Shown one piece after another: positions 1,826-39,555 of a stretch of 64,000 bases of DNA (its first letter is position 1; each line of letters starts with the position of its first letter). This DNA comes from an uncultured delta proteobacterium (GTDB lineage Bacteria > Desulfobacterota > Syntrophia > Syntrophales > Smithellaceae). The notes under the pieces are model-generated. The model did no database searches. It was not told the DNA's origin and saw only the letters and a list, made by a program, of their open reading frames with translations. The stretch is taken from positions 449,824-513,823 of the forward strand of contig CAWKNI010000008.1 in the NCBI GenBank assembly GCA_963851005.1. The letters are read 5' to 3'. The position numbers were made by a program, and so were the translations under genes.

Positions 1826-1876
1826 TTAATTGGTGCGCCCAGCAGGATTCGAACCTGCGACATCCGGATTCGTAGT
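1826..1876. repeat. att site: 51-bp direct repeat of the tRNA-Arg 3' half (partner at 39474-39524)
   Basis: ttaattggtgcgcccagcaggattcgaacctgcgacatccggattcgtagt identical at both places; this copy diverges after the anticodon loop, so it is not a full tRNA. Confidence 0.95.
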
Positions 1877-2471
1877 TCTCAACAAGCACAAAATAACGTT
1901 TTTTAACCCCTTGATCTCAGGTCTGATTTCCCGTAAATACTTAGAAACAAACAAAAAAGTAATTCTATCTATTTCTGTCTATTCTATCTTTTCCCCTTCT
2001 TTTCCCCTTCTTTTCCCATGATTTTATCACAATTTTATCACACCGGACATCTTGACTCCACCAACATTAATTCGTTGAGGATGCCGCGATAAACTGGAGC
2101 CACTCCCCTTCATTTCAGTATTGAAGTCGTAAATTGCGGTTGAAGCGTTAGTGTAGCCACTTTCATCCCGTTACTTACTAGACCCTGAAACCATAATTAA
2201 GGACATTCAGGTAAGTGCAAGTATAATGAGAACAATATGATATTTCAAGGAAAATGACAAAATTCTTGATTAAGGATACGGGGCCGAAATAGGGGGAAAC
2301 AGGGGGGTATATTTGGGAAAGTGTTGACCAAAAAATGAGTAGAGGGGAGGGGGTAAACCGGAACCACTCCCCTTTATTTCAGTAAGCCGGAATCTCTTCC
2401 CGGTCAATACTGGCAGCTTTAATTTTACAAAGGCAGAAGAAGAAAAGAATGCCGAGAATTTATAATTTCCC

Positions 2472-2499
2472 TTGACATTATAAAACAAGGTGTTAAACT
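2472..2499 (+). promoter_or_regulatory. Sigma70 promoter upstream of NYN leader RNA
   Basis: TTGACA (2472) - 16 nt - TAAACT (2494) with extended -10 TG. Confidence 0.6.
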
Positions 2500-2512
2500 A
2501 ACACCATCTACT

Positions 2513-2574
2513 CCCCGTTCGATTTCCGCTCCGCAGTAATGCGGGGGTCAAGGCTTGAGCGGGGTTATTTTTTT
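2513..2574 (+). ncRNA. Structured leader / putative small RNA upstream of NYN gene
   Basis: Outer stem 2513-2522/2555-2564, inner GC hairpin 2529-2546 with GUAA tetraloop, U-tract 2565-2574. Confidence 0.5.
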
Positions 2575-3213
2575 ATGAACTTAAAACATCCTCAAAAAGA
2601 AAATATTCGAGCAATGGCCTTCTTTGACGGCCAAAATTTATTTCACACTGCTAAAAGTACATTTAATCATGAGCACCCCAACTATGATCCCGTGAAATTA
2701 GCAGAATTGGTTTGCCAAGCCCAAAGCTGGCGGTTGCAAGAAACCCGGTTTTATACCGGCGTACCTGATTCAAAAGATAATGCCTTTTGGAATCATTTTT
2801 GGACGATTAAATTAGGTGTTTTAAAGAGGCAAAAAAATGTCTTTGTTTTTTCCCGTCCGCTACGCTATCGTCCGCGGACCATTCCCTTGCCAACCGGCAA
2901 AACTGAAACTCTGTTGATCGGTGAAGAAAAAGGGATTGATGTCCGGATTGCCATTGATGTTATCCGCCTGGCTCATAAACAAGTTTATGACGTGGCTTTA
3001 ATTTTTAGCCAAGACCAAGACCTGTCTGAAGCGGCTGAAGAAGTAAGGGCGATAGCCAAAGAACAAAACCGTTGGATTAAGGTTGCTTGCGCTTTTCCCT
3101 TTGGCCAAGGCAATAAAAATGATAGAGGAATTGATAAAACCGACTGGATTAAGATTGATCGGGAACTATATGACCGTTGTCTTGATCTGAGAGATTATAG
3201 GCCGAAGAAATAA
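2575..3213 (+). CDS. NYN domain (LabA/DUF88, PIN-like) ribonuclease
   Basis: FFDGQNL, EKGIDV.IA.D, IFSQDQDL acidic motifs; ATG 2575 preferred over 2539, which lies inside the hairpin. Confidence 0.85.
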   Translation: MNLKHPQKENIRAMAFFDGQNLFHTAKSTFNHEHPNYDPVKLAELVCQAQSWRLQETRFYTGVPDSKDNAFWNHFWTIKLGVLKRQKNVFVFSRPLRYRPRTIPLPTGKTETLLIGEEKGIDVRIAIDVIRLAHKQVYDVALIFSQDQDLSEAAEEVRAIAKEQNRWIKVACAFPFGQGNKNDRGIDKTDWIKIDRELYDRCLDLRDYRPKK

Positions 3214-3314
3214 TACTGAACCGCATATTAAGCCCAACGACAAACATCAATACCAAATCTCACGTTTTGTGGTCAGTCGGATACAGAGAAAGATTATTGG
3301 GAGAAGCAAAATAA

Positions 3315-3878
3315 ATGGATTGGAAAACGTTCATCGTTGAAGTCGCAAAGGCCTTTGCGTGGCCAGGCACTGTGCTCGTACTCCTATTTGCCTTACGCAA
3401 GACTATTACCCAAAAATTGGGAGATCTAATCGAGATCATTCGCGAGGGTAAGTCTGTCACGGCTCGCTTTGCACAGCCCCAGCAATCTGGCGCAGCGCTA
3501 CCCTCCCCAGGGCAGACCATTCTTTCACAGGAAGAAGTGCGCGAAGCGCTGAAAAAGGTACAGTACCTTAATGCAGATGAAGTAGATCGCGAATATATCA
3601 GTGCTCACGTTGAATTTATTCGAAGAGGAATCGTCACAAAGCAACAGTTAGATCAACTGATTAGCTCTGAGATCATACTGAGCACTTTGAAACAAATTTA
3701 TATTGAAGAACTCGGTCGTTCTTTAAAACACCCTCTTGATCCTATGGCGGTCGCTGTCTACGGTCCAATTCTTTACGGTCGGGCATTGGATCAGTCTACA
3801 GTCGATTTTATTCGACATGATGTAAGAAACTCACCGGAATACAAAAAACGCCGAACTACTGGCTGTAGCAAGGTGTAA
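3315..3878 (+). CDS. Hypothetical protein with N-terminal membrane helix (AWP motif)
   Basis: 187-aa ORF, GGGAG RBS, hydrophobic residues ~6-28. Confidence 0.7.
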   Translation: MDWKTFIVEVAKAFAWPGTVLVLLFALRKTITQKLGDLIEIIREGKSVTARFAQPQQSGAALPSPGQTILSQEEVREALKKVQYLNADEVDREYISAHVEFIRRGIVTKQQLDQLISSEIILSTLKQIYIEELGRSLKHPLDPMAVAVYGPILYGRALDQSTVDFIRHDVRNSPEYKKRRTTGCSKV

Positions 3879-4177: not shown

Positions 4178-4205
4178 TTGACAATACAAGAAACGTTGCT
4201 ATAAT
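4178..4205 (+). promoter_or_regulatory. Consensus sigma70 promoter
   Basis: TTGACA-16 nt-TATAAT with TG extension; TAAGGAGG RBS at 4221. Confidence 0.8.
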
Positions 4206-4231: not shown

Positions 4232-6376
4232 ATGATGGACATAAACAGCAAAGCAAGCCAACTCGAACTTGGGCGTTATCTAACTATTATTAGGGAGCGA
4301 GCAGGTATTAAGCAAGTCGATCTTGCTAAAAAAATCACATTGAGCCCGGCAGTCCTATCAAGGATAGAGACGGGAGAGAGGGGACTGGCTTCCGAGGAAT
4401 TGGAAAACATCCTTAAAGCAATTGGAACCCCTGAAGCTACGCACCTATTAGAAGCGTTAGAGAGAGAATGGTCAATTCTACCCCGCCCGTTACTTGATCA
4501 TCCTGACCAGGATCTGCTTTGGGAGGCTGAAAAAGTTGCCAAAAAGCTGGCAGAATTAAGAGTTCGGCCTGATGTACGTCATGCTTTCGAACGTCGGCTT
4601 ACAGAATATATAGGTGAACTTGAGCAATTAGCAGAGAACATTCTTAAACGGGATCATCAAATTGCATTTATTGGTAGCATTGGTATTGGCAAATCAACTG
4701 CCATATGTCGGCTTACCGGACTAGAAGTCTTGGGAACAGATGGTGTAACGCTCTCTCCAGTCTTAGAGGCAGGTGCTGGCGGAGTAACTATCTGTGAAGT
4801 ACACCTAAGCACCGGCCCTGGCTATGGACTTATGATTGAACCACGGAGTGACGACGAGATTCGCGCTGATGTAATGGACTTTGCAGAGCACATCAGTAAA
4901 GTCGACGCTGAAGACGCTAAGGGTTTGGATAATGACTCCCAAGGTATTTCCAAGGAGTTTGAACGGGCTATTCGCAACATGGCCAAACTTAAAATCCGCA
5001 GGGAGAAGGGAAGTGATGGCAAGATAATTCGTCACGACGAAGCCAAAGAATTTGCTCAAAAATTTACTTCTCTTCGTGAGCTGGTTGTCGAAGTACTTGC
5101 CCGTATGGAACTACACCGTCGCGACCGTCGTGACGTTTGGTTCGACAGCAATACAGGGAAGGCACCGCTTGTCTGGTTAAAAGACATTTTTGAGTTGGTG
5201 AATAACGGTCGGCACCCGGATTTTACTCTTCCTAAACGTATTGAAGTAGTGGTACCTCAAGCGTTACTTGGGGGATTGGATCTTTCGATCCGTATCATTG
5301 ATACCAAGGGTATTGATAGGACAGCTGCGCGTGCAGACCTTGAGTTGCACCTAGATGATTCGCATACCCTTGCCATCCTATGCTCAAGCTTCAACAATGC
5401 TCCATCAGCAGAATCACGTCTTCTTCTGGAGCGTGCAAAGGAAGCTGGAGTGAGCACGCTACATCTGAATGCGGCAATACTGGCACTGCCACGACCTAAT
5501 GAAGCACTTGCAGTAAAAGATGAATCTGGAATTCGAGTAGAGACGATAGCAGAAGGCTATGAACTTAAAGGAGAGCAAGTGTCGATGGCACTTGAGCCTC
5601 TTGGACTCCAGCAATTACCCGTAGGATTTTACAATGCTTACCAAGATGACCAAGAACGCCTGAAGTCATTTTTAGCTAAATGTATTGAACAAATTCGGGA
5701 AGCATTCCGTGCTCGCATTCGTGAAACTACTATCAACGCGAATTCCTTGCTTATCAATCAAGAAAAAGAGCAGGTTCAAGAAGTGCTACGAGCAGCAGCA
5801 AAAATGCTGAAGAGTTGGGTAGAACAGAACTTATCGATCACTTTAAGTACTGCCAATATACAAGACAGTCTTATAGATCAGATGGCGCAGGTTTATGCAA
5901 GCACCATAAGGGCAACGGTACGTCGTGAGGGCGAATGGCCAAACCTTAATTATTTGCACCATCTTGGATATGGAGCAAGACGTCTTGCTGCACTTTCTCT
6001 GGACAACACAGTAAAGGGTTTCTCTGAAACTTGCAAGGTCATGCTTGGAAATTCTGATTACGCTGAAGCTACCGATCTTATTCGGCAAGCTGAACGACTT
6101 CTGAACACTTCCTATGAAAAACTTTTGCGTGAGGTACAACTAATGGGGCAGACTTCTTTCAGTAAGGACTTGAAAACCGATACAGAGTTTTGGCAAAAGT
6201 GCGATAGCGAATGGGGCCGAGGATCTGGTTACCGTGATCGTATAACCAACATAAATGAAATATGGTTTAATAATGAAAAACGACAGGAATTGGAGAAAGA
6301 GCTTAGAAGGCTTATAGAGCGGAAATGGTCTCAGGTCTTACAGCGTGTTGCGACGTTGTTCGAAAACGAAGAATAA
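4232..6376 (+). CDS. XRE-family HTH fused to dynamin-like P-loop GTPase and helical C-terminus
   Basis: N-term IRERAGIKQVDLAKKITLSPAVLSRIETGER (HTH_3); GSIGIGKST (G1), GGVT (G2), IIDTKG (G3); helical tail. Confidence 0.75.
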   Translation: MMDINSKASQLELGRYLTIIRERAGIKQVDLAKKITLSPAVLSRIETGERGLASEELENILKAIGTPEATHLLEALEREWSILPRPLLDHPDQDLLWEAEKVAKKLAELRVRPDVRHAFERRLTEYIGELEQLAENILKRDHQIAFIGSIGIGKSTAICRLTGLEVLGTDGVTLSPVLEAGAGGVTICEVHLSTGPGYGLMIEPRSDDEIRADVMDFAEHISKVDAEDAKGLDNDSQGISKEFERAIRNMAKLKIRREKGSDGKIIRHDEAKEFAQKFTSLRELVVEVLARMELHRRDRRDVWFDSNTGKAPLVWLKDIFELVNNGRHPDFTLPKRIEVVVPQALLGGLDLSIRIIDTKGIDRTAARADLELHLDDSHTLAILCSSFNNAPSAESRLLLERAKEAGVSTLHLNAAILALPRPNEALAVKDESGIRVETIAEGYELKGEQVSMALEPLGLQQLPVGFYNAYQDDQERLKSFLAKCIEQIREAFRARIRETTINANSLLINQEKEQVQEVLRAAAKMLKSWVEQNLSITLSTANIQDSLIDQMAQVYASTIRATVRREGEWPNLNYLHHLGYGARRLAALSLDNTVKGFSETCKVMLGNSDYAEATDLIRQAERLLNTSYEKLLREVQLMGQTSFSKDLKTDTEFWQKCDSEWGRGSGYRDRITNINEIWFNNEKRQELEKELRRLIERKWSQVLQRVATLFENEE

Positions 6377-6698: not shown

Positions 6699-8213
6699 AT
6701 GCTCACGGTGGAAACTATTCGGAAGATACGGTTATCAGTACATAGAGATGGCAAATCGATTCGTCAAACGTCAAAAGATCTTCATCTATCACGGAACACA
6801 GTCAGAAGAGCAATCAGGAGTGGAGAGACCCTTTTCCAGTACGAGCGCCAGAAACAGCCAATTCCTAAGCTGGGACCGTTTATAGAAATGCTTGACGGTA
6901 AACTGGATGAGGACGAGAAACTGCCGAAGAAACTAAGGAGAACGGCACAGATTCTTTTTGAGGATATTCAACTGAACGGTTATGAGGGCGGCTATGACAG
7001 TGTAAGGCGGTATATTCAGCGATGGCGCAATGAGCGGAAGATCTCAACGGGAGGTGTATATATACCGCTGAGATTTGAACCAGGGGAAGCATTTCAGTTT
7101 GACTGGAGCCATGAATGGGTAGAGATAGGCGGGGCGAGTTTAAAGGTAAAGGTTGCCCATCTGCGGTTATGCTACAGTCGCTATTTTCTTTGCATAGCCT
7201 ACCCCAGAGAAACCCAGGAGATGGTTTTTGATGCCCATATAAAGGCTTTTGAGTTCTTCGGAGGCGTGTGCAGGAGAGGCATCTATGACAACCTCAAGAC
7301 GGTTGTTAACAAGATCATCGGAGGAAAAGAAAGGAACTTCAACAGCCGTTTCGTCCAATTCAGCTCCCATTATCTTTTTGATCCTGTAAGCTGCACACCG
7401 GGTGCGGGCTGGGAAAAGGGTCAGGTTGAAAACCAGGTAGGCTTAGCCAGAAGGAGATTTTTCATTCCCAAGATCAAGGCCAGGGACTTCAAGGAGCTCA
7501 ACGATACATTAAAAGGACAATGTATCAACTGGGCAAAGAGCCATAAGCATCCGACATTTTCCGACAAGACGGTTTGGGAGGTGTACGAAGAAGAGAAGCC
7601 TTGCATGATCAGTCTGCCTCCCCCTTTCGATGGGTATGGGGAACGTCCTGCCAGGGTTACATCCAGTTCGCTTGTGACCTATGATCGTAACAGATACAGT
7701 GTTGATTGCAGTCAGACAGGCAGAATCGTACAAATAAGAGTATATGCCGATCGAATAATGATCGTCAGTGATGGCCGCGTCGTAGGAGAACACGAGAGGC
7801 ACTTTGGAGAAAATAAGACGGTTTTTAATCCATGGCATTATGTTTCTGCCCTTGAACGGAAACCAGGCGCTTTACGCAACGGAGCTCCTTTCAAAGACTG
7901 GGATCTTCCCACGGGCATGGGAAACGTCCTCAACGGATTGCAAAACCGTTTTACCGACTGGGATCGTCAATTTGTGGCAATTCTTAATGCCGTACCTCTT
8001 TACGGTCTTGATGCCGTTGACAAGGCATGCGAAGACGCCTTGAAGATGAGAGCTGTGAGTAAGGAGGTTGTTATCAATCTTCTCAACAGGAATCAGGAAA
8101 AGGACTTTGCCGCGGATGTAGGCATTCCTCCCCACCTGATTCTGAAACAGGAACCAATAGCAGATTGCCGACGATATGAATCTTTAATGAGGGGGGACTG
8201 CAATGTTGCGTAA
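6699..8213 (+). CDS. istA: IS21 DDE transposase IstA
   Basis: N-term HTH, FQFDW, YDNLKT, EKGQVE motifs. Confidence 0.95.
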
Positions 8214-8934
8214 TGAGATCATGGAGCTTATGGGAAAGCTGAAATTACAGGGCATGCAGTCCGTTTATGATGAAGCGTTGTCAAATGGACGAAAGAGCCG
8301 GTCAACTCCTGAGAAGATGATCTTAGAAATGCTTAAAGCCGAGGCCACTGAAAGGCATATAAGAAGCATCCGCTATCGAATGGGGCAGGCCAGGTTTCCT
8401 GCGCCCAAAGATATCGACAGTTTTGATTTCAAAGGGAGTTCGGTTGATAAAAACCAGATTCAATCATTGTATCAGGGGGATTTTATTGAACAGCATATCA
8501 ATCTGATTTTCGTAGGCGGCACCGGTACCGGCAAGACACATTTGGCAACTGCAATAGCGGCGCAGGCCGTCAGGGATGGGAAAAAGTGCAAATTTTATAA
8601 CCTGGTGGATTTGGCAAATGAGTTGGAACAGGAGAAAATGGCCGGATTTGCAGGAAAAATATCTGCACGACTGATTCGGTTTGATATGGTGCTGCTTGAT
8701 GAACTGGGCTATCTGCCCTTCTCAAAAAACGGAAGCCAACTGCTCTTCCATCTCATATCCAAGCTCTACGAACAAACATCTATCGTCATGACAACAAACT
8801 TAACCTTTGGTGAATGGCCTCAAGTGTTTGGTGATGCCAAAATGACTACCGCAATGCTGGATCGCCTTACTCATCATTGTGAAATCATAGAAACCGGGAA
8901 TGAAAGCTGGAGGATGAAACACAGGTCTTCATAA
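8203..8934 (+). CDS. istB: IS21 helper AAA+ ATPase IstB
   Basis: GGTGTGKT Walker A, LLDELGY Walker B, DRLTHH; overlaps istA. Confidence 0.95.
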
Positions 8935-36772: not shown

Positions 36773-37504
36773 TTATGAAGACCTGTGTTTCATCCTCCAG
36801 CTTTCATTCCCGGTTTCTATGATTTCACAATGATGAGTAAGGCGATCCAGCATTGCGGTAGTCATTTTGGCATCACCAAACACTTGAGGCCATTCACCAA
36901 AGGTTAAGTTTGTTGTCATGACGATAGATGTTTGTTCGTAGAGCTTGGATATGAGATGGAAGAGCAGTTGGCTTCCGTTTTTTGAGAAGGGCAGATAGCC
37001 CAGTTCATCAAGCAGCACCATATCAAACCGAATCAGTCGTGCAGATATTTTTCCTGCAAATCCGGCCATTTTCTCCTGTTCCAACTCATTTGCCAAATCC
37101 ACCAGGTTATAAAATTTGCACTTTTTCCCATCCCTGACGGCCTGCGCCGCTATTGCAGTTGCCAAATGTGTCTTGCCGGTACCGGTGCCGCCTACGAAAA
37201 TCAGATTGATATGCTGTTCAATAAAATCCCCCTGATACAATGATTGAATCTGGTTTTTATCAACCGAACTCCCTTTGAAATCAAAACTGTCGATATCTTT
37301 GGGCGCAGGAAACCTGGCCTGCCCCATTCGATAGCGGATGCTTCTTATATGCCTTTCAGTGGCCTCGGCTTTAAGCATTTCTAAGATCATCTTCTCAGGA
37401 GTTGACCGGCTCTTTCGTCCATTTGACAACGCTTCATCATAAACGGACTGCATGCCCTGTAATTTCAGCTTTCCCATAAGCTCCATGATCTCATTACGCA
37501 ACAT
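36773..37504 (-). CDS. istB: IS21 IstB ATPase
   Basis: Identical protein to 8203-8934. Confidence 0.95.
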
Positions 37505-39008
37505 TGCAGTCCCCCCTCATTAAAGATTCATATCGTCGGCAATCTGCTATTGGTTCCTGTTTCAGAATCAGGTGGGGAGGAATGCCTACATCCGCGGCAA
37601 AGTCCTTTTCCTGATTCCTGTTGAGAAGATTGATAACAACCTCCTTACTCACAGCTCTCATCTTCAAGGCGTCTTCGCATGCCTTGTCAACGGCATCAAG
37701 ACCGTAAAGAGGTACGGCATTAAGAATTGCCACAAATTGACGATCCCAGTCGGTAAAACGGTTTTGCAATCCGTTGAGGACGTTTCCCATGCCCGTGGGA
37801 AGATCCCAGTCTTTGAAAGGAGCTCCGTTGCGTAAAGCGCCTGGTTTCCGTTCAAGGGCAGAAACATAATGCCATGGATTAAAAACCGTCTTATTTTCTC
37901 CAAAGTGCCTCTCGTGTTCTCCTACGACGCGGCCATCACTGACGATCATTATTCGATCGGCATATACTCTTATTTGTACGATTCTGCCTGTCTGACTGCA
38001 ATCAACACTGTATCTGTTACGATCATAGGTCACAAGCGAACTGGATGTAACCCTGGCAGGACGTTCCCCATACCCATCGAAAGGGGGAGGCAGACTGATC
38101 ATGCAAGGCTTCTCTTCTTCGTACACCTCCCAAACCGTCTTGTCGGAAAATGTCGGATGCTTATGGCTCTTTGCCCAGTTGATACATTGTCCTTTTAATG
38201 TATCGTTGAGCTCCTTGAAGTCCCTGGCCTTGATCTTGGGAATGAAAAATCTCCTTCTGGCTAAGCCTACCTGGTTTTCAACCTGACCCTTTTCCCAGCC
38301 CGCACCCGGTGTGCAGCTTACAGGATCAAAAAGATAATGGGAGCTGAATTGGACGAAACGGCTGTTGAAGTTCCTTTCTTTTCCTCCGATGATCTTGTTA
38401 ACAACCGTCTTGAGGTTGTCATAGATGCCTCTCCTGCACACGCCTCCGAAGAACTCAAAAGCCTTTATATGGGCATCAAAAACCATCTCCTGGGTTTCTC
38501 TGGGGTAGGCTATGCAAAGAAAATAGCGACTGTAGCATAACCGCAGATGGGCAACCTTTACCTTTAAACTCGCCCCGCCTATCTCTACCCATTCATGGCT
38601 CCAGTCAAACTGAAATGCTTCCCCTGGTTCAAATCTCAGCGGTATATATACACCTCCCGTTGAGATCTTCCGCTCATTGCGCCATCGCTGAATATACCGC
38701 CTTACACTGTCATAGCCGCCCTCATAACCGTTCAGTTGAATATCCTCAAAAAGAATCTGTGCCGTTCTCCTTAGTTTCTTCGGCAGTTTCTCGTCCTCAT
38801 CCAGTTTACCGTCAAGCATTTCTATAAACGGTCCCAGCTTAGGAATTGGCTGTTTCTGGCGCTCGTACTGGAAAAGGGTCTCTCCACTCCTGATTGCTCT
38901 TCTGACTGTGTTCCGTGATAGATGAAGATCTTTTGACGTTTGACGAATCGATTTGCCATCTCTATGTACTGATAACCGTATCTTCCGAATAGTTTCCACC
39001 GTGAGCAT
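37494..39008 (-). CDS. istA: IS21 IstA transposase
   Basis: Identical protein to 6699-8213. Confidence 0.95.
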
Positions 39009-39478: not shown

Positions 39479-39555
39479 TGGTGCGCCCAGCAGGATTCGA
39501 ACCTGCGACATCCGGATTCGTAGTCCGACGCTCTATCCAGCTGAGCCATGGGCGC
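39479..39555 (-). tRNA. tRNA-Arg (ACG)
   Basis: 77-nt cloverleaf, anticodon loop CTACGAA, CCA end. Confidence 0.97.

Follow-up and report, generated by a model that had tools for sequence, protein, structure and literature searches.

A leader RNA of about 60 nt stands directly before the gene for an NYN (LabA-like) nuclease in an uncultured delta proteobacterium of the Smithellaceae. It belongs to a widespread, covarying RNA motif that is absent from Rfam 15 and tied to one NYN subfamily in a mobile cassette. The stretch of DNA analysed here, called the window throughout, comprises 64,000 nucleotides (NCBI GenBank assembly GCA_963851005.1, contig CAWKNI010000008.1, positions 449,824 to 513,823 of the forward strand), and its coordinates count from its first letter. 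A preliminary description of the window had singled out the promoter, hairpin and nuclease gene as a possible RNA-antitoxin or RNA-gated defence module. It is quite possible, though in our estimate short of an even chance, that the leader is a single-hairpin RNA antitoxin or gate of the NYN RNase and represents a new class of type III-like modules spanning many phyla.

A covarying leader tied to one NYN subfamily

Homologous loci were sought among one-genome-per-species representatives, where relatives of the gene were confirmed at no fewer than 563 of at least 598 pattern-matched stretches. Eighty loci were fetched, one of which (L004) is cut at a contig end. The same leader precedes the gene in all 79 loci with upstream DNA, as well as in the window, within ∼130 nt before the gene. 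According to database records, these loci come from many groups, among them Acidobacteriota, Verrucomicrobiota, Planctomycetota, Nitrospirota, Bacteroidota, Bipolaricaulota and Omnitrophota, as well as Alphaproteobacteria and Gammaproteobacteria. Culturable carriers include Brevundimonas aurantiaca DSM 4731 (L073), Sphingopyxis sp. LK2115 (L060) and Kumtagia ephedrae 6GN-30 (L070). The shared element consists of a sigma-70-type promoter, a few bases, the sequence cUUGCUCCCCGCyCGACAyGCCGnAAGGCC(U)CGGGCGGGGUUAUUUUUU, a further 0-60 nt and the start codon. No match at gathering score to Rfam 15 was found in the whole window, and nothing relevant up to E 10 between 2250 and 2750.

The 78 distinct leaders were aligned (alignment A3), and a covariance model, R1, was built on this alignment. 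Searched over 633,500 bases, R1 gave one match per locus, always just upstream of the gene; the sole match outside the leaders lies in the window and is a chance-level, unrelated hit (18.7 bits, E 0.63). The window leader itself matches at 2497-2576 with 45 bits (E 9.5e-8). Apart from the chance-level hit, the other scores run from 51 to 80 bits, with the exceptions of L002 (45.0), L042 (44.5) and L071 (43.8). R1 also matched before the gene in 11 of 11 loci from a collection of viral contigs, down to 48% protein identity, the weakest at 21 bits.

Wider samples gave the same picture. Among 151 genomes of the class, R1 matches six and the NYN protein matches four, and the leader adjoins the gene in all four. 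The 121 genomes sampled from the order hold 28 NYN-domain places in 21 genomes; the leader is present at only three of these, all of this subfamily. Of 17 genomes in the genus, two have the leader, each together with the gene. We saw no leaderless NYN gene of this subfamily among the loci examined, and the leader is tied to this subfamily. A genome repeat or miniature inverted-repeat transposable element was ruled out by the single leader copy that BLAST and the covariance model find in the window's genome.

The leader is conserved as a structure. All 78 leaders form a single hairpin, in which an outer stem (P1, 10 bp) and an inner stem (P2, 3 bp) show standard pairs in 97.9% of 998 alignment cells. 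Compensatory changes on both sides occur in 11 of the 13 pairs (49 cells), and none of 500 shuffles reached the observed pairing measures. Sliding the partner by one to three columns lowers pairing to 32-56%. RNAalifold, unprompted, drew the same two helices, and 10 of the 11 pairs it predicts show a compensatory change. Wobble pairs (U-G and G-U) are common, at ∼9% of paired cells (UG in 42 of 78 leaders at columns 25/74), so the structure belongs to the RNA of the gene's strand. The search for conserved or covarying structure upstream of NYN homologues, which the preliminary description had proposed, therefore has a clear outcome: the leader is conserved, covarying and specific to the subfamily.

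Taken alone, the window sequence is weak evidence for a promoter-hairpin feature. Its hairpin has a predicted minimum free energy of -27.9 kcal/mol (z = -2.29) and 4 of 200 shuffles fold equally well, while the seven promoter-like sites between 1500 and 4500 are no excess over the 7.3 expected from shuffles. Such values would suit a chance hairpin or the terminator of an upstream gene, a reading to which we give next to no probability. The covarying feature occurs in every homologous locus whatever lies upstream, and the closest + strand gene upstream of it in the window ends at 869. It is this comparative evidence across homologous loci that raises the window feature above chance, and covariation together with the covariance-model matches refutes a chance hairpin.

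Constraint on the leader extends beyond pairing to its primary sequence. In 2766 locus pairs with protein identity of at most 75%, mean identity was 64.8% for the protein, 74.8% for codon positions 1 and 2 and 39.1% for codon position 3. The leader core (41 columns) averaged 82.2%, and the nine columns just upstream of the leader 27%. Invariant columns are A12 and U15 in the 5′ tail, G27-A28 at the top of P1, and U81, U82 and U84; A83 is present in 76 of 78 leaders. The conserved unpaired nucleotides comprise the internal loop ACAC/ACAU, the A..U of the 5′ tail and the 3′ UUAU. Third-codon-position entropy is near saturation throughout the open reading frame (ORF), at ∼1.3-1.7 bits per window of the scan with no dip, and the RNA element therefore ends at the leader; an element reaching into the ORF was ruled out on the same ground.

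P2 varies in length, and long inserts replace it in the window's own clade. One metagenome-assembled genome holds two NYN cassettes on two contigs (L005 and L008), whose leaders are alike in P1 and carry entirely different P2 inserts. This divergence could represent a specificity split between paralogous RNA-protein pairs.

The nuclease, its promoter and its terminator-like leader

Identification of the gene product as an NYN nuclease with intact acidic motifs, as first proposed, is borne out by a Pfam match to PF01936 well above cut-off (43.1 bits versus 24.2; E 7.6e-11), the sole Pfam family in the window protein, and by five acidic residues, D18, E118, D122, D147 and D149, that are invariant across 23 aligned sequences. 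By analogy with MARF1, as described in the available text of a preprint, metal-binding residues are probably among them (bioRxiv 10.1101/2024.01.29.577857). The AlphaFold2 model of the protein has a pLDDT of 87.7. In a Foldseek search with this model, the LabA-like protein VPA0982 (2qip) ranked first (E 4.7e-7, TM 0.64 on the target) and the NYN domain of MARF1 (6fdl) ranked 43rd (TM 0.63); these were the only NYN structures among the matches. A protein search returned 5487 proteins at E ≤ 0.001, of which the best 120 are 60-99% identical to the window protein.

Gene callers start the ORF at an ATG at 2539, inside the hairpin, which yields a record of 224 amino acids. Because the alignment of homologues places the start at 2575, we take ATG 2575 as the start codon. 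The annotation is corrected accordingly to 212 amino acids, as the called ORF intrudes into the hairpin.

Table 1. Positions of the module and surrounding features in the window
Feature	Position	Strand	Basis or remark
Sigma-70-type promoter	2472..2499	+	TTGACA 2472-2477, 16-nt spacer with TG, TAAACT 2494-2499; 10 of 12 consensus matches
Likely transcript start and single-stranded 5′ tail	2506..2512	+	A2506 invariant in 78 of 78 leaders
Leader hairpin	2513..2564	+	outer stem P1 enclosing expanded P2 (2529-2546, GUAA loop); fold, covariation, covariance model
P1 outer stem, 10 bp	2513-2522 with 2555-2564	+	CCCCGUUCGA pairs with UUGAGCGGGG
P2 inner stem, 7 bp	2529-2535 with 2540-2546	+	loop GUAA 2536-2539
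U-run UUAUUUUUUU, predicted terminator tail	2565..2574	+	abuts ATG 2575
NYN (LabA-like, PF01936) nuclease, 212 aa	2575..3213	+	Pfam, alignment, AlphaFold2 model
Segment shared with the only other module-bearing genome of the genus	2318..3860	+	98.3% identity, flanks differ; blastn
Downstream ORF, 187 aa	3315..3878	+	no Pfam, NCBIfam or PADLOC match; cluster in 2 of 80 loci
Att-like copy of the 3′ 52 nt of tRNA-Arg(ACG)	1826..1876	-	alignment identical over the tRNA 3′ part
Intact tRNA-Arg(ACG) gene	39479-39555	-	ARAGORN, sole intact copy

Upstream of the start codon, the promoter, the 10-bp outer stem, the 7-bp hairpin with its GUAA loop and the U-tract running directly into the ATG were all found where they had been reported. 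A structured unit of ∼65 nt had been described as well; the structure stands and the length does not, as the folded unit measures 52 nt, or 62 nt including the U-run. The Shine-Dalgarno-like GCGGGG, said to be locked in the stem, does lie within the 3′ strand of P1 and is the sole purine run before ATG 2575.

This arrangement recurs across the alignment. In 50 of the 78 distinct leaders, the corresponding position is occupied by a promoter with a score of 9 of 12 or better. The -10 hexamer ends 6-10 nt before the invariant A in 65 of 78 (full range 3-12 nt), and in the window that A is the seventh base after the hexamer. Leader hairpins have a median energy of -24.3 kcal/mol, and at least six U occur in the nine nucleotides after the stem in 74 of 78. 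The weakest U-run belongs to L042 (3 of 9), yet a second strong hairpin with a U-rich tail precedes the start codon there. The GC-rich stem and U-run together constitute a predicted Rho-independent terminator between the promoter and the NYN gene. A simple terminator scan passed over the window hairpin, since the loop of this hairpin is another hairpin.

The leader may also act on translation. In ∼10 loci, including the window, the start codon follows the stem by 9-11 nt, and there is no candidate ribosome-binding site other than the GGGG or GGAG of the P1 3′ strand. In the remaining loci a distinct G-rich run often lies after the U-run (a crude pattern counts 39 of 78). We consider a role in cis likely, with the terminator throttling transcription and, in the window, also masking the ribosome-binding site, because of this anatomy and because terminator features are conserved and even compensated.

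RNA libraries offer a view of the transcript. Two RNA-library contigs from two studies span leader, U-run and ORF (2510-2769 and 2523-2666); as they cross the U-run, read-through RNA probably exists. That one of them begins at 2510 is a weak hint only for the transcript start. Eight RNA runs were matched, none with half of the sampled words. The four runs aligned to the window consist of contigs, from which neither a small RNA nor the ends or abundance of transcripts can be read, and stretches that they leave uncovered (e.g. 2074-2443) are uninformative.

Precedents and competing readings

The closest system in the consulted text of the literature is AbiF/RCd22 (RF03085 with Abi_2/HEPN). There, a SigA-type promoter is followed by a structured non-coding RNA with abiF-motif hairpins, a Rho-independent terminator and a promoterless gene for a toxic HEPN RNase (bioRxiv 10.1101/2025.04.15.648962). 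Short transcripts outnumber read-through, and deletion of the RNA raises toxin expression 17-fold. RCd22 RNA is described as binding the AbiF toxin directly and neutralising it in cis as well as in trans (bioRxiv 10.1101/2025.04.15.648962). The order of promoter, structured RNA, terminator and RNase in the window, initially likened to AbiF-like systems, matches this documented layout: the NYN module likewise has a promoter, a hairpin RNA, a predicted terminator and an RNase gene on one transcript, with RNA contigs bridging leader and ORF. Unlike AbiF, it has neither the abiF motif RF03085 (no Rfam 15 match) nor an Abi_2/HEPN domain (Pfam finds NYN only). RCd22 as described has two motif hairpins and a separate terminator, whereas the NYN leader is one hairpin that is itself the predicted terminator. 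Binding and toxicity are documented for AbiF/RCd22 and putative for the NYN module.

An RNA-antitoxin interpretation of the leader is plausible, with good precedent, and unproven. Because a terminator sits between promoter and gene, most transcripts would end as a short RNA, and nuclease mRNA would arise only by read-through. In the window, read-through mRNA would in addition be poorly translated, since the only Shine-Dalgarno-like run is buried in the hairpin. The abundant short RNA would then bind the NYN nuclease and hold it inactive, as an RNA antitoxin or gate, in the way that RCd22 does for AbiF, and the terminator would set the ratio of RNA to protein. The factor that reads the hairpin is most likely the co-inherited NYN protein itself, because the primary sequence stays constant in such distant hosts as Acidobacteriota, Verrucomicrobiota and Alphaproteobacteria. 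Several steps of this scheme are putative, namely termination in vivo, RNA-protein binding, inhibition and toxicity, as is a role in phage defence. Overall, we tentatively prefer the reading in which the leader is a terminator-type attenuator (in the window also burying the ribosome-binding site) and at the same time the nuclease's own RNA partner, and put it close to an even chance.

Searching from the RNA side revealed orphan leaders. An exact 25-letter leader pattern occurs in at least 120 stretches of metagenome contigs; 80 of these were examined and 75 have at least 120 nt downstream. An NYN match (E ≤ 1e-5) lies directly downstream in 57 of the 75. On closer inspection, 49 reach residue 200 (8 of them in pieces), five are cut by the contig end, six are truncated and 15 have no match. 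About half of the 18 loci without a match at 1e-5 retain 4-27 N-terminal codons, and others enter unrelated genes or a tRNA gene. The class sample likewise holds two orphan leaders among its six leader-bearing genomes, one retaining eight codons (L215) and the other none (L216). In all, the NYN gene is decayed or absent after about one third of exact leaders and the converse was not seen, a pattern that a toxin-antidote pair would predict.

Two of the orphan leaders (L133 and L140) lie ∼120 nt from a tRNA-Gly gene. In two metagenome loci (L129 and L131) an intact leader is followed by ORFs of nucleotidyltransferase type, MNT-like by eye, rather than by NYN, which would mean a promoter-leader platform now fronting another cassette.

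Classical type III toxin-antitoxin systems share a general layout in which an RNA element and a terminator precede an endoribonuclease gene, with no protein antitoxin. Like ToxIN, CptIN and TenpIN, the NYN module places its RNA element and terminator upstream of an RNase gene, has no protein antitoxin, and is accessory and horizontally spread. Unlike ToxI-type antitoxins, its leader is a single hairpin with no tandem repeats (none were found in 2470-2575), and its nuclease does not belong to the ToxN/AbiQ, CptN or TenpN families (Pfam reports NYN only, PADLOC only HEC-09, and the modelled fold matches NYN structures). Since it has neither tandem repeats nor a ToxN-type toxin, we keep the module out of classical type III, and membership in those families is ruled out.

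HEC-09 (PDLC04163) is a defence candidate consisting of a single-gene, MARF1-like NYN protein embedded in Hma loci (bioRxiv 10.1101/2024.01.29.577857). The NYN gene studied here is also a single MARF1-like gene, and some members of its subfamily lie directly upstream of HmaB (e.g. L006, with a 266-bit HmaB methylase). The window copy lies outside any Hma locus, and its match to the HEC-09 model, the only PADLOC result, is partial (45.5 bits, residues 12-175 on profile positions 3-156 of 203). Six homologues likewise score 36-56 bits over ∼150 of 203 positions. Because the model match is only partial, we treat the present set as a subfamily related to HEC-09.

Several points weigh against an RNA that inhibits its nuclease. 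The leader is a single hairpin without the repeats of ToxI-type antitoxins, and the window's own copy departs from the consensus internal loop, has an expanded P2 and scores 45 bits. The contigs that bridge the U-run show that termination is not absolute. The conserved sequence could be read by a universal host factor (RNA polymerase/NusA, the ribosome or Hfq). The asymmetry between leaders and genes has another possible source, since visible damage finds a larger target in a 640-nt ORF than in a 25-nt pattern, and a leader-first search is blind to deletions that removed the leader. E. coli carrying HEC-09 cloned with the native promoter region was not protected from any of the phages tried, and the consulted text of that preprint makes no mention of an RNA ('ncRNA' and 'non-coding' occur 0 times; bioRxiv 10.1101/2024.01.29.577857). 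Finally, RNA-protein binding, toxicity and a discrete small RNA are inferences.

Much of this would suit a leader that works in cis only, terminating transcription and masking the ribosome-binding site while the NYN protein (or a host RNase) feeds back on the NYN mRNA by binding or cutting this leader, and in which the short RNA is not inhibitory. Autoregulation of an RNase through its own mRNA is familiar from the rne and rnc leaders and from the self-targeted stem-loop of Regnase-1, itself a member of the wider NYN/PIN-like group. RNase Y is likewise reported to autoregulate through a structure in its own mRNA (PMC10303841). By analogy with rne, rnc, rny and Regnase-1, the NYN leader would be a structured element in an RNase's own mRNA. 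A purely cis-acting leader shares its anatomy, linkage, covariation and sequence constraint with the preferred reading and accounts for the data almost equally well; the conserved element does not reach past the leader, with third codon positions near saturation along the ORF, and read-through transcripts exist as RNA-library contigs. Those RNases are housekeeping and vertically inherited, whereas here gene and leader cross phyla together in a cassette, with a promoter-proximal terminator as the element. What cis regulation alone leaves unexplained is why leaders, with their promoter, outlast the gene, and why a horizontally moving nuclease should need a tight double lock unless it is harmful. 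Neither point is decisive, and we regard a cis-only leader as a serious if rather doubtful possibility.

It seems improbable that the terminator contains a sensor, be it a riboswitch of very small size or a site at which a factor of phage or host, such as an antiterminator, would open the hairpin on a signal and release expression. Its position in the 5′ leader, the terminator stem as the conserved part and the conserved unpaired nucleotides would be in keeping with such a sensor, and the HMP-PP riboswitch is a described terminator-embedded aptamer of similar size (PMC6478431). However, conservation of unpaired positions is limited to about six, the length of P2 is variable, with long inserts in the window's clade, and the window lacks the consensus internal loop. 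The gene encodes a mobile nuclease rather than a metabolic or transport function. No upstream anti-terminator strand is available either, because the transcript starts a few bases before the stem.

For other NYN subfamilies, a crude terminator scan reported hairpins at 8 of 28 loci. This is a lead only, as the scan overlooks nested hairpins such as that of the window and is blind to the difference between leaders and terminators of upstream genes. In L234 (483-534, - strand), L238, L239 and L251, all from the same taxonomic order, NYN genes of other subfamilies are preceded by a GC-rich hairpin with a GNRA loop and a U-run, at 11-30 nt from the start codon, and L234 gives a weak R1 match (16 bits). 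Such hairpins may reflect a wider NYN theme or may simply be terminators of upstream genes.

The function of the bacterial NYN/LabA-like group is given as unknown in the consulted text of a 2017 survey of the PIN superfamily by Matelska (PMC5499597). In the literature consulted, we found no description of this leader RNA; 'NYN' is absent from the main text of motif-discovery papers (the scope being open main texts, not supplements or subscription journals), and the main text of Weinberg 2017, taken likewise without its supplements, mentions no LabA, DUF88, PIN domain or nuclease. The leader provides a handle on NYN/LabA-like function, as a specific RNA probably recognised by the protein. If the RNA neutralises the nuclease, the module would be a second architecture of AbiF type, with an unrelated RNA and an unrelated toxin fold. 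One hairpin would then serve as terminator, ribosome-binding-site mask and inhibitor at once, the most compact such design, and cognate leader RNAs may be a general feature of stand-alone NYN nucleases. By analogy, the leader may also bear on the inertness of HEC-09 in E. coli, given that the consulted text describes cloning with the native promoter region.

The cassette and its surroundings

Judged by sequence comparison, promoter, leader and NYN gene travel as a cassette of ∼0.8 kb. Between the window and the sister genome (L002/L218/L220), blastn matches cover 2318-2467 and 2458-3860. In a partial second copy (L004/L223) and in RNA contig X1, the match ends at 3215, two bases past the NYN stop codon. 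Close copies in other lineages share 0.8-0.9 kb with different flanks. The upstream border falls ∼90-165 nt before the start and the downstream border ∼13-140 nt after the stop; they vary from pair to pair, so that no fixed ends were found, and no terminal repeats were seen.

A discrete cassette without a recombinase might suggest that the hairpin is a DNA-level site of recombination or mobility and NYN a structure-specific DNA nuclease. The end of homology two bases past the stop codon in two copies, and the position of some copies beside or between tRNA genes (L049 is flanked by two tRNA-Arg genes), are points in favour of such a site. However, the ∼9% of G-U and U-G cells would be A-C mismatches on the other strand, the hairpin is fixed in place and orientation between promoter and start codon with its U-run, and the differing cassette borders do not coincide with it. 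We hold a DNA-level role to be very improbable.

No protein partner is conserved beside the gene, in agreement with the earlier remark that no protein antitoxin is adjacent. When 594 ORFs from the 80 loci were clustered, the largest cluster besides NYN and its antisense ORFs comprised six loci. Pfam searches of 53 of the 77 downstream neighbours (those of at least 120 aa) returned housekeeping enzymes, transposases, a phage portal protein and, in four cases, a DUF1156 methylase. The 187-aa ORF downstream in the window is linked to NYN only there and in the sister genome, and lies outside the conserved module.

Among 50,697 records of isolated phages, none matched the NYN protein. Four plasmid records did; one of these is close (59.5% identity) and is a 2.8-Mb replicon. 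A 70%-identical cassette with a bacterial-type promoter (L003) lies beside an acyl-CoA dehydrogenase gene on a 4.5-kb contig binned as a Methanosarcinales archaeon, representing either transfer into an archaeon or a binning error.

In the window, the att-proximal location first proposed for the module is reasonable because of the copy of the tRNA-Arg 3′ end (Table 1). Several cassettes elsewhere adjoin tRNA genes, five of them beside tRNA-Arg (loci noted: L049, L030, L053 and L075). In L049, tRNA-Arg(GCG) genes at 3322-3398 and 4767-4840 flank ∼1.4 kb with the NYN cassette as its sole content.

Between the window's tRNA-Arg repeat and the intact gene lie ∼37.6 kb, in which no tyrosine integrase was found among the scanned ORFs of at least 150 aa. 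This stretch holds two inverted copies of an IS21-type element (6699-8934 and 36773-39008; transposase and IstB, with identical IstB Pfam scores), an IS110 transposase, two group II introns and metabolic genes such as that for an aldehyde:ferredoxin oxidoreductase. It may be an old island reshaped by insertion sequences, in which the part between the IS21 copies has perhaps undergone inversion.

Short tandem repeats of 9-11 nt occupy 1963-2042, just inside the att-like repeat, and a ∼20-nt motif (CCACTCCCCTT.ATTTCAGT) occurs twice upstream of the NYN promoter (2098-2117 and 2366-2385). Two genes downstream of NYN, 4232-6376 encodes a 714-aa protein with an N-terminal Cro/C1-type helix-turn-helix and weak, sub-cut-off matches to P-loop GTPase-like models (EngB, FlhF); it has its own perfect-consensus promoter at 4178-4205.

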